From the IMG/VR virus record IMGVR_UViG_3300020048_000015, positions 64,001-128,000 of that record: DNA of 64,000 nt. One strand, written 5' to 3'. Made by a program: the position numbers and the translations under genes. Origin of the DNA: a virus. Positions 5,107 through 61,307 of this stretch are shown here, one piece after another. The notes under the pieces were generated by a model. That model was given only the letters and a program-made list of their open reading frames with translations, did not search any database and was not told the DNA's origin. Positions within the stretch are counted from its first letter, which is position 1. The number at the start of each line of letters is the position of its first letter.

Positions 5107-6360
5107 ATGAAACTAAAGAAATATTTAGAGTTTATAAAAGAAGAAGTGAGAATTTCAAATGTATATATACCAACGTATGAAGAATGTGTTGAGATATGCT
5201 CCCAGGATGAATCTCCTTTTTATGAAACTAAATTAATAGTTGAATCCTATCCTGTTTCGCTTTTCAACTATAGGTTAGCAAAATATAGCGATTTCGTTAC
5301 ACCTTTGCCTTCTAAACCAAGCGTCTCTGGAAAAGAAATGCGTGGTTTATCATTTGTTTTTAACACAGATGGAACACTATATAATAGATATGTTTTACTT
5401 GAAAAGTTTTTTAACTTAAATCAAGTTCCTGAATCTATGTATTCAGTTATAAAAAACTATAAAATAAAATTTGTAAATAACAAAGAAGATGGAAGCATTG
5501 CATCATTTATCAAGCTTCCAAATGGAAAAGTAGTTGGTAAATCTAAGATGGGATTTGACAACGAACAAGCTAATGGTATAAACTATGTTTATAACAACAG
5601 ACCGAAAATAAAAAAGTTTGTTGATTGGTGCTTAAACAATGACATCATACCAATATTTGAATATGTATCACCAGCAAACAGAATTGTTCTAAGATATTTA
5701 GATGAAGATCTAATCTTATTAAGAATGCGTGATAATAAAACAGGAAAACATATTGATTTAAAAAATCATATGGACAAAATCGGTTCTATTAAAATTGCAC
5801 CTTTTGAAGATGATGAAAAAGATTTGGATAAGTTAATTGAAGTAACTGCTACACAAGTAGATAAGGAAGGAATCATTGTTCAAACCGAAGATTCTAATGG
5901 AAATGATTTATTCTTTAAGCTCAAAACACCGTGGTATGTAGCTCGCCACAATTTATTAACAAATGATTTATATAGAGAAAATATATTAATCGGATATATC
6001 TTAGATGATATGATAGATGATTTGTTAGGGCAAATACCAGAAGATGAGAAAGATACCCACGAAAGAATCAATAAAATTATTAATATTGTTAAAAAAGTTC
6101 TTGACCAAAAAGTAAACGATATTAAAAAATTATACCAGGTTTTTGTTTCTATGAACAAAGATAGAAAAGAATTTGCTTTGAAATACTTTAAAGATAAAAA
6201 CTTTAGTTGTGTTATGTCTATGAACAAAGGTGTTGAACCATATGAAATTGCTAAAGATTGGCTAAGAAAGGAAACTGATAGACTTTTTGCAGCAAGAGAT
6301 TTTCTACAAAAAATAGATTCAACAATCTTTTTCAAAGATGCAACAGAAGATGATAATTAA
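5107..6360 (+). CDS. T4 Rnl1-family RNA ligase
   Basis: KEMRGLSF, LEKFFNLNQ, motif I NKEDGS, FEYVSPANRIV, KEGIIV, FFKLKTPWY. N-terminal MKLKKYLEFIKE leader. Confidence 0.9.
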   Translation: MKLKKYLEFIKEEVRISNVYIPTYEECVEICSQDESPFYETKLIVESYPVSLFNYRLAKYSDFVTPLPSKPSVSGKEMRGLSFVFNTDGTLYNRYVLLEKFFNLNQVPESMYSVIKNYKIKFVNNKEDGSIASFIKLPNGKVVGKSKMGFDNEQANGINYVYNNRPKIKKFVDWCLNNDIIPIFEYVSPANRIVLRYLDEDLILLRMRDNKTGKHIDLKNHMDKIGSIKIAPFEDDEKDLDKLIEVTATQVDKEGIIVQTEDSNGNDLFFKLKTPWYVARHNLLTNDLYRENILIGYILDDMIDDLLGQIPEDEKDTHERINKIINIVKKVLDQKVNDIKKLYQVFVSMNKDRKEFALKYFKDKNFSCVMSMNKGVEPYEIAKDWLRKETDRLFAARDFLQKIDSTIFFKDATEDDN

Positions 6361-18178: not shown

Positions 18179-19354
18179 ATGTTTATAAAAAATTACAACA
18201 AATTCTTAGAATCTAAAAATCAAAAAACTATGTGGGACATAATTCCAAATTCAGTTAAAGTGTTACATAAATTATTTACAGCTAATAATAAAAAATTATA
18301 TGTTGTTGGTGGTGCTGTTAGGGATTTCTTAAATAACGAAAAACCTAAAGACTTTGACCTTTGTACTGATGCAACTCCAGATGAAGTTATTGATATTCTT
18401 AAAGATTACAAAACTAACCTTCAAGGTAAAGCATTTGGTGTTGTTGTAGTATTTACAGATGACCAACCTGAAGGAATGGAAATTGCAACTTTTAGAGAAG
18501 ATGTTTATGATACTAAATTAGGGAAATCAAGAAATCCAAATAGTGTTAATTTTACAACTATTGATAAAGATGTTAAAAGACGTGATATCACTTATAATGC
18601 TATGTTTTTTGATTTGGATAAAAAAGAAATTGTAGATTTAGTTGGCGGACAAGAAGATATTAAAAACAAAATTACCAAATTTGTTGGTGAACCTTCTGAA
18701 AGAATTATTGAAGATTCACTTAGAATCTTAAGAATTTTGAGATTTTCTTGTAGATACAATTTTTCCATTGATGAAAAAACTGCTGATGCAATTAAAGAAA
18801 ATGCTGATACCCTTAAAATAATTTCAAAGGAAAGAATCTATGATGAAATGAAGAAAGCTTGGAAACAAGCTAAATCATACACAACTTACCTTAACTATTT
18901 TATTGAGTTTGGATTATTTGAACATATATTTCCAAATGCTTTAGTAAATAAAGAAGTTAAAGATTGTAAGTTTTTTGTAACATATATTGCTAACCTTTTT
19001 AAAAATGATAAACTATCAGATTTAGAAAAAAGATTAATTCAAACATATAAATTTGATAGTGATGTTGTTTCTAAAGCATTATTCCTAATTAACTTAGTTA
19101 ATTTATCACCAGATAATGCATTCAACTTATTTAAAATGAAAAACTCTTCACATTGTGAAGATAGTGTTATCCTTGATTGGTTTAATATTAATGATTTAAA
19201 TGATAATATGTTCATTAAATTTTTAGAATATACACCAAGTGTATCTGCTGAAGAATTAATGGCTAAGGGGATAAAAGGAAAGGAATTAGGTGACACTATT
19301 AAAAGAATGGAATCTGATAATTTTAAAAAATTAATTGAAAAAAATGAAAATTAA
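18179..19354 (+). CDS. CCA-adding enzyme / tRNA nucleotidyltransferase (class II NTase)
   Basis: VVGGAVRD, KDFDLCT, EIATFRED, DVKRRDITYNAM, EDSLRILRILRF, ERIYDE. N-terminal leader MFIKNYNKFLES. Confidence 0.9.
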   Translation: MFIKNYNKFLESKNQKTMWDIIPNSVKVLHKLFTANNKKLYVVGGAVRDFLNNEKPKDFDLCTDATPDEVIDILKDYKTNLQGKAFGVVVVFTDDQPEGMEIATFREDVYDTKLGKSRNPNSVNFTTIDKDVKRRDITYNAMFFDLDKKEIVDLVGGQEDIKNKITKFVGEPSERIIEDSLRILRILRFSCRYNFSIDEKTADAIKENADTLKIISKERIYDEMKKAWKQAKSYTTYLNYFIEFGLFEHIFPNALVNKEVKDCKFFVTYIANLFKNDKLSDLEKRLIQTYKFDSDVVSKALFLINLVNLSPDNAFNLFKMKNSSHCEDSVILDWFNINDLNDNMFIKFLEYTPSVSAEELMAKGIKGKELGDTIKRMESDNFKKLIEKNEN

Positions 19355-21273: not shown

Positions 21274-23046
21274 ATGAATAATAAATATAACAACACATTT
21301 ATATTAACATCAATAATTATGTTTATATTCCTTTTAATAAAACCACTAACAATATTTGATGTTATTACTATTTCAAAATTTTTAGAATGGATTGAATTTG
21401 TATGTTTTTTAATATTCATACCAACCTTTTTTATAATATTATATGATCTAAAAATTAAAAATAAAATAGATGTAAATAAAATAATGTATCTAAAAAGATT
21501 AAATAATGTTTTAATATCACAATCAAAAGATAGTCTATTTTACAATGGTGATTTAGAAGAAGAATCAAAAGAAATAATAAAGGAAATTTCAACAACCCTA
21601 AATATAGATAGATCTTCTATATGGTTATATAGCAATAATAAAAAAACACAAATAATCTGCCAACAATTATATTCAAAGAAAAATGATTCTTATACACAAA
21701 ATATAAGAATACCTACTAAAAAGCATGAATCATATTTCAATGCATTAAATAATAAGATTACAATAATCGCCAATAATACAGAAACAAATCCATTAATAAA
21801 ATCATTCTATATTGAATATTTAAAACCATTAGGTATAAAATCAACAATGGATATTCCAATTATTTATAATGGGGATGTAAAAGGTGTTATATCTATTGAA
21901 AGTTTTGATAAAAGATCTTGGAAAGAAGAAGAAATAAACTTTGTTCAAGTATTATCATCATTATATTCATTAGCTTGGTCAATAAATAAATCCAATGAGT
22001 TAAATAATAGAATAAAAGTAAAAGAACAAGAAATAAGAAACAAAATGAATGCCATAAATAAATCAAATTTAGTAATGGAATTAGATTTAAACGGATATGT
22101 ATTAAATGCAAATGATAATTTTTTATTATTAACTGGTTATGATAAAAATGAAATAATAGGTAAAAAATATACAACATTCACAAAAATTGATAATTCTTTT
22201 ATTTGGGAAAAATTAATGAAAGGTGTATATCATTCTGATAAATTTGAAATTCTTAAAAAGAACGGAGATTATATTTGGATAAGAGCTACTTATAATCCAA
22301 TTTTAGATGTAGAAGGTAAAATCTATAAAATAATTAAAATTGCAGTTGATATAAATGAATCAGTTTTACAAAGAGAAGAAATTGAAAAGAAAAACATATA
22401 TTTAGAACATGCAGCTAAAATAATTAGACATGATATGCATTCTGGTATAAACACATATCTACCAAGAGGTATATCATCATTAGAAAGAAGACTACCAAAG
22501 GAAGATATTGAAAGACTTAAATTAGAATCACCATTAAAACTATTAAAAGAAGGTCTTAAACATACACAATTAGTTTATAAAGGAGTTTATGAATTTACAA
22601 ATTTAGTTAAACATAATTCTGAATTAAACAAGACAGAATGTAATATAAAACAAATATTACAAAATTATTTAACATCAACTGTATATTTATCACAAGTATT
22701 ATTAGATGATAATTTACCAATAATACAAGTAAATGAATCACTTTTTTGCACAGCTATTGATAATTTAATAAGAAATGGATTAAAATATAATGATAGTACT
22801 AATAAATTCGTTAAAATCTATTCTGAAAATAAATATATAGTAATTGAAGATAATGGTAGAGGTTTATCACAGGAAGACTTAGATAATTATAGTAAACCAT
22901 ATTCAAGAAGAAAAGATCAAAAAGAATCTGGAACTGGGTTAGGATTGAATATATGTTTAGCAATATTAAAAGAACATGGATTCAGTATAACAACAGAAAA
23001 GGTTATTCCAAATGGAACAAAAATTAAAATTAAAATTTATGATTAA
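21274..23046 (+). CDS. Membrane sensor histidine kinase (2 TM-GAF-PAS-HisKA-HATPase)
   Basis: N-terminal hydrophobic helices; GAF (LNIDRSSIW..LGIKSTMDIPI); PAS (LDLNGYVLNANDNF..GYDKNEIIGK..WIRATYNPI); H-box RHDMHSG; N-box DNLIRNGLKYN; EDNGRG; GTGLGL. Confidence 0.92.
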   Translation: MNNKYNNTFILTSIIMFIFLLIKPLTIFDVITISKFLEWIEFVCFLIFIPTFFIILYDLKIKNKIDVNKIMYLKRLNNVLISQSKDSLFYNGDLEEESKEIIKEISTTLNIDRSSIWLYSNNKKTQIICQQLYSKKNDSYTQNIRIPTKKHESYFNALNNKITIIANNTETNPLIKSFYIEYLKPLGIKSTMDIPIIYNGDVKGVISIESFDKRSWKEEEINFVQVLSSLYSLAWSINKSNELNNRIKVKEQEIRNKMNAINKSNLVMELDLNGYVLNANDNFLLLTGYDKNEIIGKKYTTFTKIDNSFIWEKLMKGVYHSDKFEILKKNGDYIWIRATYNPILDVEGKIYKIIKIAVDINESVLQREEIEKKNIYLEHAAKIIRHDMHSGINTYLPRGISSLERRLPKEDIERLKLESPLKLLKEGLKHTQLVYKGVYEFTNLVKHNSELNKTECNIKQILQNYLTSTVYLSQVLLDDNLPIIQVNESLFCTAIDNLIRNGLKYNDSTNKFVKIYSENKYIVIEDNGRGLSQEDLDNYSKPYSRRKDQKESGTGLGLNICLAILKEHGFSITTEKVIPNGTKIKIKIYD

Positions 23047-38593: not shown

Positions 38594-38977
38594 ATGATGA
38601 AATACATAAAACTATTTGAAAATTTTTATGATGATACTTCTTGGACTAAAGAAATAGATGGAAAAGAAGAAACCATAACCATACACGATATACAAGAATA
38701 TCTTAAAAATGATGATGTTGTTAATATAAAAGTTGATGATATTAAACATATGTGCATCCACAAAAATAAAAAGGATAAAAAAACAATTGAACGTTCACAA
38801 AAAGCAGACTTAAATTATCCAATAATAATATCAAAAGGAACAGATGGTAAATTTAAAATGATTTTAGATGGACATCATAGATTAAAAAAGGCTATTGATG
38901 ATAGTGTAGAATTTATAAAAGCAAAAATTATAGATCTAAGAAATACACCAGATATTTACAAAAATATGTTTGAATAA
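38594..38977 (+). CDS. ParB/Sulfiredoxin-like domain protein with leader
   Basis: ADLNYPIII...ILDGHHRLKKA. Confidence 0.8.
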   Translation: MMKYIKLFENFYDDTSWTKEIDGKEETITIHDIQEYLKNDDVVNIKVDDIKHMCIHKNKKDKKTIERSQKADLNYPIIISKGTDGKFKMILDGHHRLKKAIDDSVEFIKAKIIDLRNTPDIYKNMFE

Positions 38978-39012: not shown

Positions 39013-39369
39013 ATGAAACACATTAAATTATTTGAAAATTTTGATGAAAAAGATGGTAAAAATTGGAAAACTGCATTTGATGCATATCAAGGTATGTATC
39101 TTAATATTACAGACGAAATTAAACAAAAAATTAAAAAAGAACTTGGATTAGATGATGATAATATCAAGTTTGGATATAACGAAATGCAAGAAGATAGAAG
39201 TATGTGGTTTGCTTCTATTCTAATTAATTTAGATGCATTATCTGATGATAAGAAATCAAATTTTAAAGATATAGTTAGAAATATCACCAACCCAAAAATT
39301 CCAAATAATGCACCCATAACAAAAAAATCCGGAATTATAAATAAAATTAAAGGTTTTTTTAGCAAATAG
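39013..39369 (+). CDS. Hypothetical protein with MKHIKLFENF leader
   Basis: 118 aa; TAATATATA at 38980-38988. Confidence 0.75.
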   Translation: MKHIKLFENFDEKDGKNWKTAFDAYQGMYLNITDEIKQKIKKELGLDDDNIKFGYNEMQEDRSMWFASILINLDALSDDKKSNFKDIVRNITNPKIPNNAPITKKSGIINKIKGFFSK

Positions 39370-39375
39370 TAATAA

Positions 39376-39417
39376 AAAAAAATGTTGATAATATTTAAAT
39401 ATTATCAACATTTTTTT
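39376..39417. terminator. Bidirectional terminator (42-bp palindrome)
   Basis: aaaaaaatgttgataatattt|aaatattatcaacattttttt. Confidence 0.8.
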
Positions 39418-39592
39418 ATTGTTCACCAAATAATTGTTCTTCTAACCAATCAAACCATTCTACTTCCAACATATCCCAATCAACATTATCTGTTAGTAAC
39501 TTTTTTGCTTCTCGTTGTCTATCAGTTATTAGTTTAGCCATTTCCCATAGTTTTTGATTTGATAATGGAATTGATATTCTTTCTTTAGACAT
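39416..39592 (-). CDS. Small hypothetical protein (58 aa)
   Basis: Read by hand: MSKERISIPLSNQKLWEM...WFDWLEEQLFGEQ. Confidence 0.6.
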   Translation of the reverse strand: MSKERISIPLSNQKLWEMAKLITDRQREAKKLLTDNVDWDMLEVEWFDWLEEQLFGEQ

Positions 39593-39722
39593 TTTTTATA
39601 TTTTTTATCTTATCTAAGATATTTTTTACCCTAGTTCTTTTATCTTTATACCCAAATGATTTCAATATTTCTAAATTAATTTGTTTTGCTAATTCATCTG
39701 CTAACATCTTTACTACATCCAT
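39585..39722 (-). CDS. 45-aa protein with gp23-like segment (MLADELAKQINLEIL)
   Basis: Read by hand. Resembles T4 gp23 ILATEIMLEINREVV (recalled from memory). Basic tail KRTRVKNILDK. Confidence 0.55.
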   Translation of the reverse strand: MDVVKMLADELAKQINLEILKSFGYKDKRTRVKNILDKIKNIKNV

Positions 39723-39724
39723 AA

Positions 39725-40417
39725 TTATCTTATAATTTTAAAACAACAATATTTATTTTCCCAACCACCAACTTGTTCAAATGCATATTTATTATTTATC
39801 TTATCTATTAAAAGTGTTAATCCCGTTTCATTTTCTTTACCCGAATTACCAACAATAATTTTATCAGAATCAATAGTATCATCAAATATTACTTTAATCC
39901 CATAATTATTATTAGTATCTACATATTCTTGACAATCTCTACCAACTAAAACAAAATTAGCAGATCCTATTCTACTTTTAACAGCTATCATATTAGAAGC
40001 CATCATTATTTTTGACATAAATCTTCTAACATTATATTCATAATTTTCCGCTCTAGTTTTGTTTTCATCAAATTCAATAGTATAATTTAAACTTGATTCA
40101 ATCTGTATATTAGTATTCAAGAAATTAAAAACTTCATAGTATATTTGATCATATTGTGCAATGTCTTTAATAGTTAAAGACTTTGAATTTATAACCATTT
40201 CAATTGTTCCAAAATCGTCTTCTTTAATTTCTACATAACCAGATTTATATTCATCTATTTCATCATCAACTATTGCACCAATCGCCAAATCCCTATTTTT
40301 TTGTTTAATTTTGGAAATATCTTTTATTTGTGGTTCTAAATAATATATTGTGTTTGTATTTAATAAATCACATTCTTTATAAAAACACACTTCTTTTAAT
40401 TTTTCATTATTGTTCAT
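39725..40417 (-). CDS. Protein with partial gp23/gp24-like major-capsid C-terminal region
   Basis: KIMMASNMIAVKSRIGSANFVLV and KVIFDD...IIVGNSG..ETGL resemble gp23 QIDKEAVEIARQTGRGEGNFII and RVYIDQ...VGYKG...DAG. Confidence 0.55.
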   Translation of the reverse strand: MNNNEKLKEVCFYKECDLLNTNTIYYLEPQIKDISKIKQKNRDLAIGAIVDDEIDEYKSGYVEIKEDDFGTIEMVINSKSLTIKDIAQYDQIYYEVFNFLNTNIQIESSLNYTIEFDENKTRAENYEYNVRRFMSKIMMASNMIAVKSRIGSANFVLVGRDCQEYVDTNNNYGIKVIFDDTIDSDKIIVGNSGKENETGLTLLIDKINNKYAFEQVGGWENKYCCFKIIR

Positions 40418-40574
40418 TTATCTTTCTTAAAATATTTTTTATAATTTTAATCCTTTTATAAAGATACAAATTATCACTACCAACTAAAATATAATTGGAA
40501 CTTCCTTTCCTACTTTTATTTGCTAAACTATTAGCCGCAGATAATAGTTTAGTTATTAAATCTCGTTGATACAT
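40407..40574 (-). CDS. 55-aa protein with gp23-like segment (KLLSAANSLANKSRKGSSNYILVG)
   Basis: Read by hand. Paralogous to a segment of 39725-40417. Basic tail KRIKIIKNILRK. Confidence 0.6.
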   Translation of the reverse strand: MYQRDLITKLLSAANSLANKSRKGSSNYILVGSDNLYLYKRIKIIKNILRKINEQ

Positions 40575-40735
40575 CTATCTAAAATTTCTTTAATAAAAAT
40601 TTTTCTTTTTTCTTTTGTATATTCCCTTATCACATCATCAAAACTACCGTGCATCATACTAAGATCAGAAATCATTTCACTTTTCCAAGAAGTTTTCAAT
40701 TGTCTTGTTGACACATTTACTATTTTACATTCCAT
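40556..40735 (-). CDS. 59-aa protein with gp23-like segment ([22 protein letters not shown])
   Basis: Read by hand. Resembles T4 gp23 KSRQLKAAYSIELAQDLRAVHG. Basic tail KRKIFIKKILDR. Confidence 0.6.
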
Positions 40736-41822
40736 GACTATTGTTTATTTTAAATCCACCATCAATTAGATACTTATCTTTACTAAACAATTCCAAATCA
40801 GATTGAACCATTTCTTTACATATATCTTCAACTGTATATGTTGGTTCCCATCCCAATTGTGTTTTAGCTTTAGTATAATCACCAATTAACAAATCAACTT
40901 CAGTAGGTCTGAAATATTCAGAATCAACTTCAATTAATAAATCACCAGTTTCCTTATTATAACCTTTTTCATCAACACCAACACCTTTCCATACGATATG
41001 GACATTAACTTCATTAAAAGCCAATTCAACAAATCTTCTAACTGTTATTTTTCTATTTGTTGCTAATATATAATCATCAGGTTTATCTTGTTGCATCATT
41101 AACCAAGCACCATACATATAATCTTTAGCGTGACCCCAATCTCTTTCGGCATCTAAATTACCTAAATATAGTTTTTCTTGTAATCCTAAGAATATTTTAG
41201 CAACTGCCATTGTAATTTTCCTTGTAACAAAGGTTTCACTTCTGCGTCCACTTTCGTGATTGTACAGAATTCCGCAACAAGCAAATATACCATAAGCTTC
41301 TCTATAATTAACTGTAATCCAATGTGCATAAAGTTTTGCAACACCATATGGACTTCTTGGATAGAATGGTGTAGTTTCTTTTTGTGGTATTTCCTGAACT
41401 TTTCCGAACATCTCCGAACTTGAAGCTTGATAATACTTAACCTTTTTTTCCATTCCAAGAATTCTAATAGCTTCAAGAACACGCAAAGCACCCATTCCTG
41501 TAACATCACCTGTATATTCTGGTAGACCAAAAGAAACTTTAACGTGTGATTGTGCGCCAAGATTATAGATTTCATCAGGTTGAACTTCTTTTATTATTCT
41601 AATTAAATTAGTTGAATCTGATAAATCACCATAATGTAAGAAGAAGTTATTATTTTCTTCGTGTTTATCTTTATAAAGATGATCAATTCTTGAAGTATTG
41701 AATGATGAACTTCTTCTTTTTATACCATGAACGATATAACCTTTTGATAAAAGCAATTCTGCTAAATAACTTCCATCTTGTCCAGTAATTCCTGTGCAAA
41801 GTGCTACCTTCTTTTTATCCAT
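40725..41822 (-). CDS. gmd: GDP-mannose 4,6-dehydratase
   Basis: [58 protein letters not shown]. Confidence 0.97.
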
Positions 41823-60545: not shown

Positions 60546-61307
60546 TTATTGTATTTTTTTATCAATTTTTCCAATTTTATCTTTTATAGATTCAAAATAT
60601 GGTATATATTGTTCTTTTGTAACATTTAAGAAATAATTATAGATATTTAGATTTCTATAATATAGATTCCTATCTACTTGAGCTTTTTCATGATATAGAT
60701 GATAACACTTATCTTTTACATTTTCACAATTTAAAAATAATTTTGCTTTATTTGACATAAAATCATCTTCTGCACCCCATCCCCAAAAATCCTCATTCCA
60801 TCCTGCTAATTTTTCTAAAGATTGTTTTTGGAACATAATTATACCACCACACATAGGAACTTTTTGATGATCATTTTCGCCTCTACCTGGTCTTGATATT
60901 GAATATAAATTATCCATATCAAAATTATTAATGAAATTTGATGTTTCTTGTGGGGATAAATCTAATACGGATGAATAAGGATTAACACATTCAAAACTAT
61001 TTAATAATTCAACTGATGATAAAAATGATTTAGAATCCATTATTAAATCAGCATCACCAAATACTATTTTATCATTTATAGCATTTTTTAAGCCAACATT
61101 AAAGCACCAAGATTTATTAAAGGGATAATTATTTTCTAAAAAAATATGTTTGAATTTAAATTCTTTAAAGATATCAATTTTTGATGATATATCACTTTCA
61201 ACAATAATTATTTCACAATCAAATTGTGAAACCCATTTTAATATTGTTTTTAAATTAATTGCTCTATCTTCTGAATGTCGATAAGCAATAATATATGAAA
61301 AATTCAT
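60546..61307 (-). CDS. GT7/GT2 galactosyltransferase-like protein
   Basis: FNKSWCFNVG, FGDAD, GWNEDFWGWGAEDD, YHLYH. Confidence 0.88.
   Translation of the reverse strand: MNFSYIIAYRHSEDRAINLKTILKWVSQFDCEIIIVESDISSKIDIFKEFKFKHIFLENNYPFNKSWCFNVGLKNAINDKIVFGDADLIMDSKSFLSSVELLNSFECVNPYSSVLDLSPQETSNFINNFDMDNLYSISRPGRGENDHQKVPMCGGIIMFQKQSLEKLAGWNEDFWGWGAEDDFMSNKAKLFLNCENVKDKCYHLYHEKAQVDRNLYYRNLNIYNYFLNVTKEQYIPYFESIKDKIGKIDKKIQ

Follow-up and report, generated by a model that had tools for sequence, protein, structure and literature searches.

Capsid-related genes of the locus

The DNA analysed here (the window) is a stretch of 64,000 nucleotides (nt) corresponding to bases 64001-128000 of a 182,728-bp IMG/VR viral record (IMGVR_UViG_3300020048_000015; 25% G+C). 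Four adjacent open reading frames (ORFs) on its minus strand, named ORF4, ORF3, ORF2 and ORF1 in order of transcription, encode proteins that resemble the major capsid protein (MCP) gp23 and the vertex protein gp24 of phage T4. An initial annotation, made from the sequence alone, had placed four gp23-like ORFs at this position; all four are present, and the likeness of each to gp23/gp24 lies far above chance as judged by shuffle z-scores, Pfam and fold. The T4 motifs that it quoted are likewise found in the real T4 gp23 (residues 262, 293, 356, 422 and 436). Two of the four ORFs represent undescribed MCP-derived families that extend across huge-phage lineages: ORF2, the "mini-MCP" (230-265 amino acids [aa] in the family), and ORF4 (~60 aa).

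The transcriptional order at the locus is GDP-mannose 4,6-dehydratase, ORF4, ORF3, ORF2, ORF1, ORF0 and a hairpin (Table 1). Adjacent ORFs overlap by 8-19 nt, the exception being ORF2 and ORF1, which are 2 nt apart. TAA is the stop codon of every ORF at the locus; ORF4 and ORF2 are in one reading frame and ORF3 and ORF1 in another. The own starts and tight overlaps described in the initial annotation were borne out: each ORF starts at an ATG of its own and holds precisely one homologous segment, and no junk separates the segments. ORF4 to ORF0 are predicted from this sequence to be translationally coupled, and to be co-transcribed with the sugar genes that precede them. The hairpin after ORF0 has 19 bp (dG -17.6 kcal/mol, z -8.3) and is conserved in an alignment of relatives; the terminator scan did not pick up this AT-rich structure, and a promoter scan of the locus performed no better than shuffles. 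ORF0 has no capsid similarity and no homologues in profile and homology searches.

Table 1. Features of the locus and its surroundings, in window positions
Feature	Position	Strand	Basis or description
Hsp70	1-1248
T4 Rnl1-type RNA ligase	5107-6360
CCA/poly(A) polymerase-type nucleotidyltransferase	18179-19354
GAF-PAS histidine kinase	21274-23046
Plus-strand pair, first gene	38594-38977	+	ParB-like / phrog_17560 match
Plus-strand pair, second gene	39013-39369	+
Hairpin and U-run, AT-rich	39376-39417	-	Between convergent genes; likely operon terminator
ORF0, 58 aa	39416-39592	-	Final operon gene; 8-nt overlap with ORF1
ORF1, 45 aa (49 aa in two relatives)	39585-39722	-	MCP spine helix and following segment
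ORF2, 230 aa, mini-MCP	39725-40417	-	Complete compact gp23-type HK97 fold (predicted)
ORF3, 55 aa	40407-40574	-	A-domain long helix and strand (Arg-x-Gly motif region); basic C-terminal tail
ORF4, 59 aa	40556-40735	-	MCP segment: E-loop return strand, short helix, start of spine helix
GDP-mannose 4,6-dehydratase	40725-41822	-	blastn match to annotated cyanophage GDP-mannose 4,6-dehydratase gene; last 11 nt overlap ORF4 start
Glycosyltransferase (Glyco_transf_7C / GT2-like)	60546-61307	-	tblastn 47% identity, E 3.6e-66, to the L026 glycosyltransferase; Pfam

In gp23 numbering, ORF4 corresponds to residues 257-315, ORF3 to 353-385 and ORF1 to 288-324, and ORF2 covers the whole core. The set as a whole is therefore out of gp23 order, as the initial annotation had it, but ORF4 and ORF3 taken together are collinear with the MCP. 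Pfam Gp23 (PF07068) is matched by ORF2 (E 1.4e-4, 21.8 bits) and ORF4 (E 0.002, 18.0 bits), both below the gathering cut-off of 24.4 bits; a Pfam scan of ORF3 and ORF1 returned no match, and a sequence search of the Protein Data Bank (PDB) with ORF2 and ORF4 returned no capsid matches. When three MCP queries were compared with a six-frame translation of the whole 182.7-kb record, the top match was ORF3, ORF2 or ORF4. A full-length MCP was not found in the record by Pfam Gp23 or phrog_138, with which only ORF2 and ORF4 were matched.

ORF2 and the mini-MCP family

An AlphaFold2 model of ORF2, built with the family alignment, has a predicted local distance difference test score (pLDDT) of 95.4 and a predicted template modelling (TM) score (pTM) of 0.85. 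Its top PDB matches in Foldseek are T4 gp23/gp24, HK97 gp5 and encapsulins, at a probability of 1.0. Alignment of model residues 3-230 to T4 gp23 residues 106-520 with VIA-align gives a Z of 16.3 with 202 residues aligned, and alignment to T4 gp24 a Z of 13.1; in the ESM Atlas, ORF2 has a TM score of 0.73 over 202 residues to a Gp23 cluster. The model of ORF2 is accordingly an HK97 fold in which the spine helix, P-domain and A-domain are present. It has no propeptide, N-arm, long E-loop or insertion domain, and the structural alignments to gp23 residues 104/106-520 span only 178-202 residues. The initial annotation had taken ORF2 for a fragment; AlphaFold2, Foldseek and VIA instead describe a whole, compact HK97 fold. 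At 230 aa, it falls short of the full MCP architecture (about 420-620 aa; the MCPs of relatives have 572 and 616 aa).

An exhaustive HMMER search with ORF2 as the query recovered 100 cluster representatives at E<=1e-3, 34 of them at E<=1e-10 (clusters defined at 50% identity). Nearly all members have 230-265 aa and align from end to end, matching ORF2 residues 1-230 at 25-38% identity. In an alignment of 58 members, R42, G199 and F226 are invariant, and R149, G151, K186 and I188 nearly so. The family hidden Markov model (HMM) matches ORF2, the query from which it derives, at E 5.5e-64, and 15 of the 58 members match Pfam Gp23 (best E 2.1e-9). The MCP of Tenacibaculum phage PTm1 is matched by ORF2 at E 5e-9. 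In the 642-kb genome LR756502, a 252-aa mini-MCP and a 572-aa MCP located 12 kb from it are both recovered with the family profile, suggesting that the mini-MCP is an extra paralogue and probably not the shell protein.

The ORF4 family

Over its whole length, ORF4 aligns to residues 299-360 of the Microcystis phage Mel-JY01 MCP (z 8.6); against T4 gp23, the similarity covers residues 257-283 (z 7.8, 0/300 shuffles), and the Pfam Gp23 match covers profile positions 142-167. Modelled alone, ORF4 is predicted to form a two-helix hairpin (AlphaFold2 pLDDT 89). A near-length search with ORF4 alone found only two close relatives. Small ORFs of other lineages are nonetheless homologous to it (phmmer E 5.7e-7 to 1e-2), and a profile search extends the family to at least 70 clusters at 90% identity, with lengths of 53-71 aa, on contigs of up to 617 kb. 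Pfam Gp23 is matched by 37 of the 38 family members tested (best E 6.3e-12). The family alignment has a mean column identity of 53%, with conserved V, W, E-M, D-L, R and I-x-x-I positions, and ORF4 belongs to the family by these features: the family profile recovers it from its own genome at E 7.7e-20 over positions 6-62 of 63. The same profile gives a weak match (E 0.013), probably by chance, in a 586-aa helicase ORF (G000:C1:157937-158095, plus strand).

The segment that the family carries ranks among the most conserved of the MCP. A tblastn search with one family member matched 569 phage records; among the best 40 of these, all annotated matches are in T4-like MCP genes or unnamed ORFs, at 40-49% identity over ~38 residues. 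Another member aligns over its full length to residues 319-374 of the LR756502 MCP.

In five other contig lineages, ORF4-type and mini-MCP genes are separated by no more than about 2.5 kb: an ORF of 56-63 aa with a Gp23 match is found ~2.5 kb from the mini-MCP. There, the ORF4-type ORF is flanked by an RNA-ligase-like 440-aa gene and a gene of about 410-417 aa, followed by a S-adenosylmethionine (SAM)-lyase-like gene. At L026:5749-9077 (minus strand), and also in L019, L027 and L028, these form an operon of RNA-ligase-like (440 aa), gp23-segment (57 aa), ~415-aa and SAM-lyase-like (177 aa) proteins that is convergent with the mini-MCP gene; from its gene content, this may be a counter-defence operon. 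A split MCP composed of the 440-aa, 57-aa and 417-aa products was considered and rejected, as the 440-aa protein resembles an RNA ligase and the 417-aa protein has no Pfam or PHROG capsid match. In the window lineage the RNA-ligase synteny is gone, but ORF4 still adjoins the mini-MCP; this retained adjacency speaks most strongly for a joint function of the two families.

ORF4 does not match the mini-MCP family HMM significantly (E 0.52), and hhalign aligns the two families weakly (E 0.12) and in the spine helix only, which means that ORF4 is not just a mini-MCP copy reduced to its N-terminus. A complex prediction for ORF2 and ORF4 scored 0.00, which speaks neither for nor against an interaction.

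ORF3, ORF1 and the C-terminal tails

ORF3 is 48% identical to ORF2 residues 131-161 (E 1e-8) and matches positions 143-192 of the mini-MCP family HMM (E 1.4e-7), retaining an Arg and a Gly that are nearly invariant in that family. The corresponding comparison with the LR756502 MCP (residues 423-450) gives a z of 9.1. Since ORF3 and ORF2 hold the same segment, the idea that each ORF carries a different fragment does not stand.

ORF1 is closest to residues 201-232 of T4 gp24 (z 7.0, 0/300 shuffles), compared with a z of 2.2 for the homologous residues 293-312 of gp23. Against three other MCPs, every best local alignment falls within the spine helix. Its match to the mini-MCP family HMM is not significant (E 8.9). 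A tblastn search of the window ORF1 against phages gave no match, and the ORF1 sequences of relatives gave non-significant matches only (E about 5), four of five of them in MCP genes.

The basic tails noted in the initial annotation are present, but to call them added is at least partly wrong: the ORF4 and ORF1 tails match the stretch of the MCP in which the spine helix ends and the next strand follows. The motif [KR][KR]-x(1-4)-[IV]-K-[NE]-I-[LF], which was defined after the tails had been seen, occurs three times in 192,513 six-frame residues, and these three are the C-termini of ORF4, ORF3 and ORF1. The tails are also aligned to the ORF4-family tail by hhalign (E 0.008 and 0.04).

Conservation among relatives

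Three metagenomic relatives (~95% amino-acid identity) keep all five ORFs intact, and the only length change among them is an in-frame 12-nt indel in ORF1. Ratios of nonsynonymous to synonymous differences per site (pN/pS, Nei-Gojobori) are 0.31-0.34 for ORF4, 0.40 for ORF3, 0.32-0.39 for ORF2 and 0.59 for ORF1; as there are only 8-19 substitutions per small ORF, this evidence for selection is weak. The initial annotation had proposed maintained mini-genes as opposed to one decayed gene. That proposal holds strongly for ORF4 and ORF2, which belong to conserved families, and plausibly for ORF3 and ORF1, whose frames are intact in four sequences with pN/pS of 0.4-0.6 on few substitutions. For the locus overall, we consider it very likely that these are maintained, MCP-derived genes.

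Glycan genes and genome context

In other genomes, a Glyco_transf_7C/GT2 glycosyltransferase gene lies directly upstream of the mini-MCP and overlaps its start: this arrangement is found in LR756502, in contigs of 617, 527 and 102 kb, and in one of 16 kb (the start overlap was observed in loci L001, L019, L025, L027 and L028). By this gene order, the mini-MCP family is genetically coupled to the glycosyltransferase. On a 185-kb contig, a DUF723 gene sits between the two. DUF723 genes beside the mini-MCP were seen at L026:4050-4967 (minus strand, between glycosyltransferase and mini-MCP) and at L017:294-512 (minus strand), and look like a mobile (homing-type) element.

In the window, the orthologous glycosyltransferase is the first gene of a same-strand run of ~22 kb that ends with ORF4-ORF0. 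The sugar genes of this run (40725-61307, minus strand, about 20 kb) encode an alpha-1,3-fucosyltransferase-like protein, a methyltransferase, a double nucleotidyltransferase and GDP-mannose 4,6-dehydratase. Because these ~20 kb of sugar genes sit exactly between the glycosyltransferase and the mini-MCP, the latter is probably linked functionally to glycan synthesis; the placement suggests phage-directed glycosylation of a capsid-type protein.

The record also codes for Hsp70, an RNA ligase, a CCA/poly(A) polymerase-type enzyme, a GAF-PAS histidine kinase, gp32, a family-B-type DNA polymerase and a baseplate hub, a gene content that identifies it as a huge myovirus-type phage. The ORF2 protein occurs identically on a 353,919-bp contig, from which the genome is at least 354 kb in size. 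Beyond the terminator, the two genes of the plus-strand pair have a common N-terminal leader, M-K-x-I-K-L-F-E-N-F. The pair is missing in the close relatives L004 and L005, in which a 199-aa gene directly follows the terminator, suggesting that it is a recent insertion.

Proposed role and alternative explanations

The explanation that we favour overall, on balance, is that the four ORFs are maintained gp23/gp24-derived genes with a capsid-side role that close a long glycan-biosynthesis operon at its 3' end. The ORF4, ORF3 and ORF1 products would mimic MCP elements and bind a partner that normally contacts those elements. Mimicry is the most economical idea because the residues conserved in the MCP segment of origin, where they serve intramolecular or inter-subunit contacts, are kept in the small proteins. 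The preferred partner would be a capsid-type protein of the phage itself, either MCP or mini-MCP, and the binding would take place as heads are formed or decorated with glycans. The small proteins could then act as assembly or capping modulators, and the mini-MCP as an accessory capsid-associated protein, possibly gp24-like or glycan-bearing. A capsid or glycan role is favoured by the adjacency to the mini-MCP, the membership in the glycan operon, the translational coupling and the T4-like arrangement of gene 24 and RNA ligase; the assembly-side mechanism itself we put forward tentatively, as one possibility drawn from sequence comparisons.

Several observations count against a capsid-side role for maintained genes. 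No ORF3 or ORF1 homologues outside this lineage were found in homology searches, and the near relatives are too close for a strong test of selection. The collinearity of ORF4 and ORF3 with the MCP is what remnants of one copy would show. The true MCP of the phage lies outside the 182.7-kb record, judging from Pfam Gp23, phrog_138 and the MCP queries. The mini-MCP is without the N-arm and long E-loop, which link subunits in real shells, and a structural role for it is therefore not assured. The ORF4 family is nearer to the general T4-like MCP consensus than to a resident huge-phage MCP (28-32%), and the operon that the ORF4-type gene shares elsewhere with RNA-ligase-like and SAM-lyase-like genes suits counter-defence at least equally well.

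The collinearity of ORF4 and ORF3 leaves a remnant reading in place for ORF3 and ORF1. Under this explanation, ORF3 and ORF1 (and ORF4 in the window lineage) would be neutral deletion leftovers of duplicated capsid genes, their frames still open since the events were recent. ORF4 and ORF3 lie in different frames, ORF3 and ORF1 have been seen in only four near-identical sequences, and T4 itself provides a precedent in alt.-1/alt.-2, annotated as a partial alt duplication split by a stop and a new start. However, the ORF4 family is kept as a small gene in at least 70 clusters, and ORF3 is 52% diverged from ORF2 yet retains both an open frame and the positions conserved in the family. The one-to-one correspondence of segments and ORFs without intervening junk, the pN/pS values below 1 among relatives, and the common C-terminal motif, which is kept while flanking residues vary among relatives, are also at odds with neutral leftovers. 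We regard the remnant explanation as quite improbable in general, and on sequence grounds as excluded for ORF4 and ORF2. Read-through of the four ORFs into one protein, by programmed frameshifting or an alternative code, would account for the tight overlaps and for the sharing of one frame by ORF4 and ORF2 and of another by ORF3 and ORF1. This candidate was rejected and is extremely unlikely: TAA stops are used throughout, eight stops lie in frame between ORF4 and ORF2, the HK97 fold would not be obtained from the fused order, and ORF4-type and ORF2-type genes stand alone in other contigs.

If the small proteins are functional copies of MCP surfaces, their partner might instead be outside the phage. 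As immune decoys, they would imitate conserved epitopes of the MCP and engage host sensors of capsid proteins (CapRel, Avs7/Dsr1, Lit-type) but leave them inactive. Several defence proteins are triggered directly by MCPs, which CapRel, Avs7 and Dsr1 sense (PMC9712102; PMC13581612). The segment carried by the ORF4 family is widespread in T4-like phages, as seen in the tblastn matches above, and its gene is elsewhere coupled to an RNA-ligase-like gene in a run with a SAM-lyase-like gene. RNA ligase and SAM lyase are types of function that serve in counter-defence in T4 and T3. Nevertheless, we know of no sensor for the ORF4 segment, and Lit recognises the Gol peptide, a different part of gp23. 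The lower similarity of the ORF4 family to a resident MCP than to distant T4-like MCPs is odd for a self-mimic, there is no PADLOC or anti-defence family match, and the genes of the window lie within a glycan operon. Decoys are a serious rival explanation, the gene context offering arguments in both directions, but on the whole seem unlikely. That same pattern of similarity, closer to the T4-like consensus than to a resident MCP, would suit weapons against competitors, in which dominant-negative MCP pieces and a mini-MCP without an E-loop poison head assembly of co-infecting T4-like phages; lacking the linking N-arm and E-loop, the mini-MCP could act like a chain terminator. To our knowledge there is no precedent for this in phages, and the pieces would endanger the phage's own gp23-type capsid, so that from the sequences in hand such weapons appear very improbable. 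A broader proposal, which we hold to be doubtful, is that huge phages keep a toolkit of stand-alone capsid elements (strand-helix-spine helix, spine helix-strand, A-domain helix-strand and a stripped HK97 core) that mimic conserved MCP surfaces and either blind host sensors or poison the assembly of rivals.

Comparison with known systems

Our preferred reading, a capsid-side role, invites comparison foremost with T4 gp23 and gp24 (PF07068), with which ORF2 shares the predicted fold at the Z values given above and retains the A-domain motifs; the small ORFs match one element each. They differ in size (521 and 427 aa, compared with 230 aa for ORF2) and in setting, as ORF2 follows a glycosyltransferase and sugar genes and not a head-gene module. 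T4 gene 24 is convergent with rnlB (the RNA ligase 2 gene), and the mini-MCP of other lineages is convergent with an RNA-ligase-like gene. This synteny, the fold match and the greater closeness of ORF1 to gp24 than to gp23 are leads only towards a relationship with the gp24 vertex protein. The convergent genes facing gene 24 in T4 (NC_000866 7324-10086, L030) include, besides rnlB, the small genes 24.2 and 24.3, an arrangement reminiscent of mini-MCP, small ORF and RNA ligase in the huge phages; comparison of 24.2 and 24.3 with ORF4, ORF3 and ORF1 showed no clear similarity (raw scores 21-34). The T4 alt.-1/alt.-2 genes are alike in being small, adjacent ORFs with their own starts that are pieces of a neighbouring virion-protein gene (NC_000866 annotation). 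In contrast to them, the ORF4 type is conserved across many lineages, away from a full-length parent, and three pieces are found here with an intact compact paralogue.

Encapsulins are also small HK97-fold proteins outside a virion module (ORF2 fold match Z 12-13.4), and the truncated "A-domain" (family 4) encapsulins are similar small proteins of this fold. ORF2 differs from them in its sequence affinity to gp23, its location in a phage genome and its sugar-metabolism neighbours, with no cargo-type neighbour seen. The satellite capsid remodellers SaPIbov5 Ccm (an MCP homologue) and P4 Sid are extra capsid-like or capsid-binding proteins that alter the assembly of HK97-type shells. These are encoded by satellites and act on a helper capsid, unlike the present genes, which are in the phage itself and among which nothing shows size redirection. 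Finally, in Gol/Lit, CapRel, Avs7 and Dsr1, host immunity reads short or whole MCP surfaces (PMC9712102; PMC13581612); the capsid triggers in these systems are segments of the real MCP, unlike the stand-alone genes described here.

No family in PHROGs, NCBIfam, PADLOC or Pfam (beyond the partial Gp23 match) covers the mini-MCP or the ORF4 family, and a search for related loci in viral contigs from a single protein found nothing. In the literature searched, there are no stand-alone MCP-segment genes, no phage-encoded MCP segment of this kind described as a decoy, and no minimal gp23-type paralogue tied to glycosyltransferases.

Among the proteins of tailed phages, those of the capsid are the most conserved and the most closely surveilled. 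If the mini-MCP and ORF4 families bind capsid proteins, they would be new factors of morphogenesis or glycan decoration, and would give the minimal core of a T4-type HK97 fold. Should their targets be host sensors or the capsids of rivals, they would represent a new kind of mimicry weapon, and the toolkit proposal, if true, would amount to a new class of phage counter-measure made from pieces of the phage's own structural genes. The proteins of both families are small and easily expressed, and they can be tested against T4-like phages in laboratory strains.

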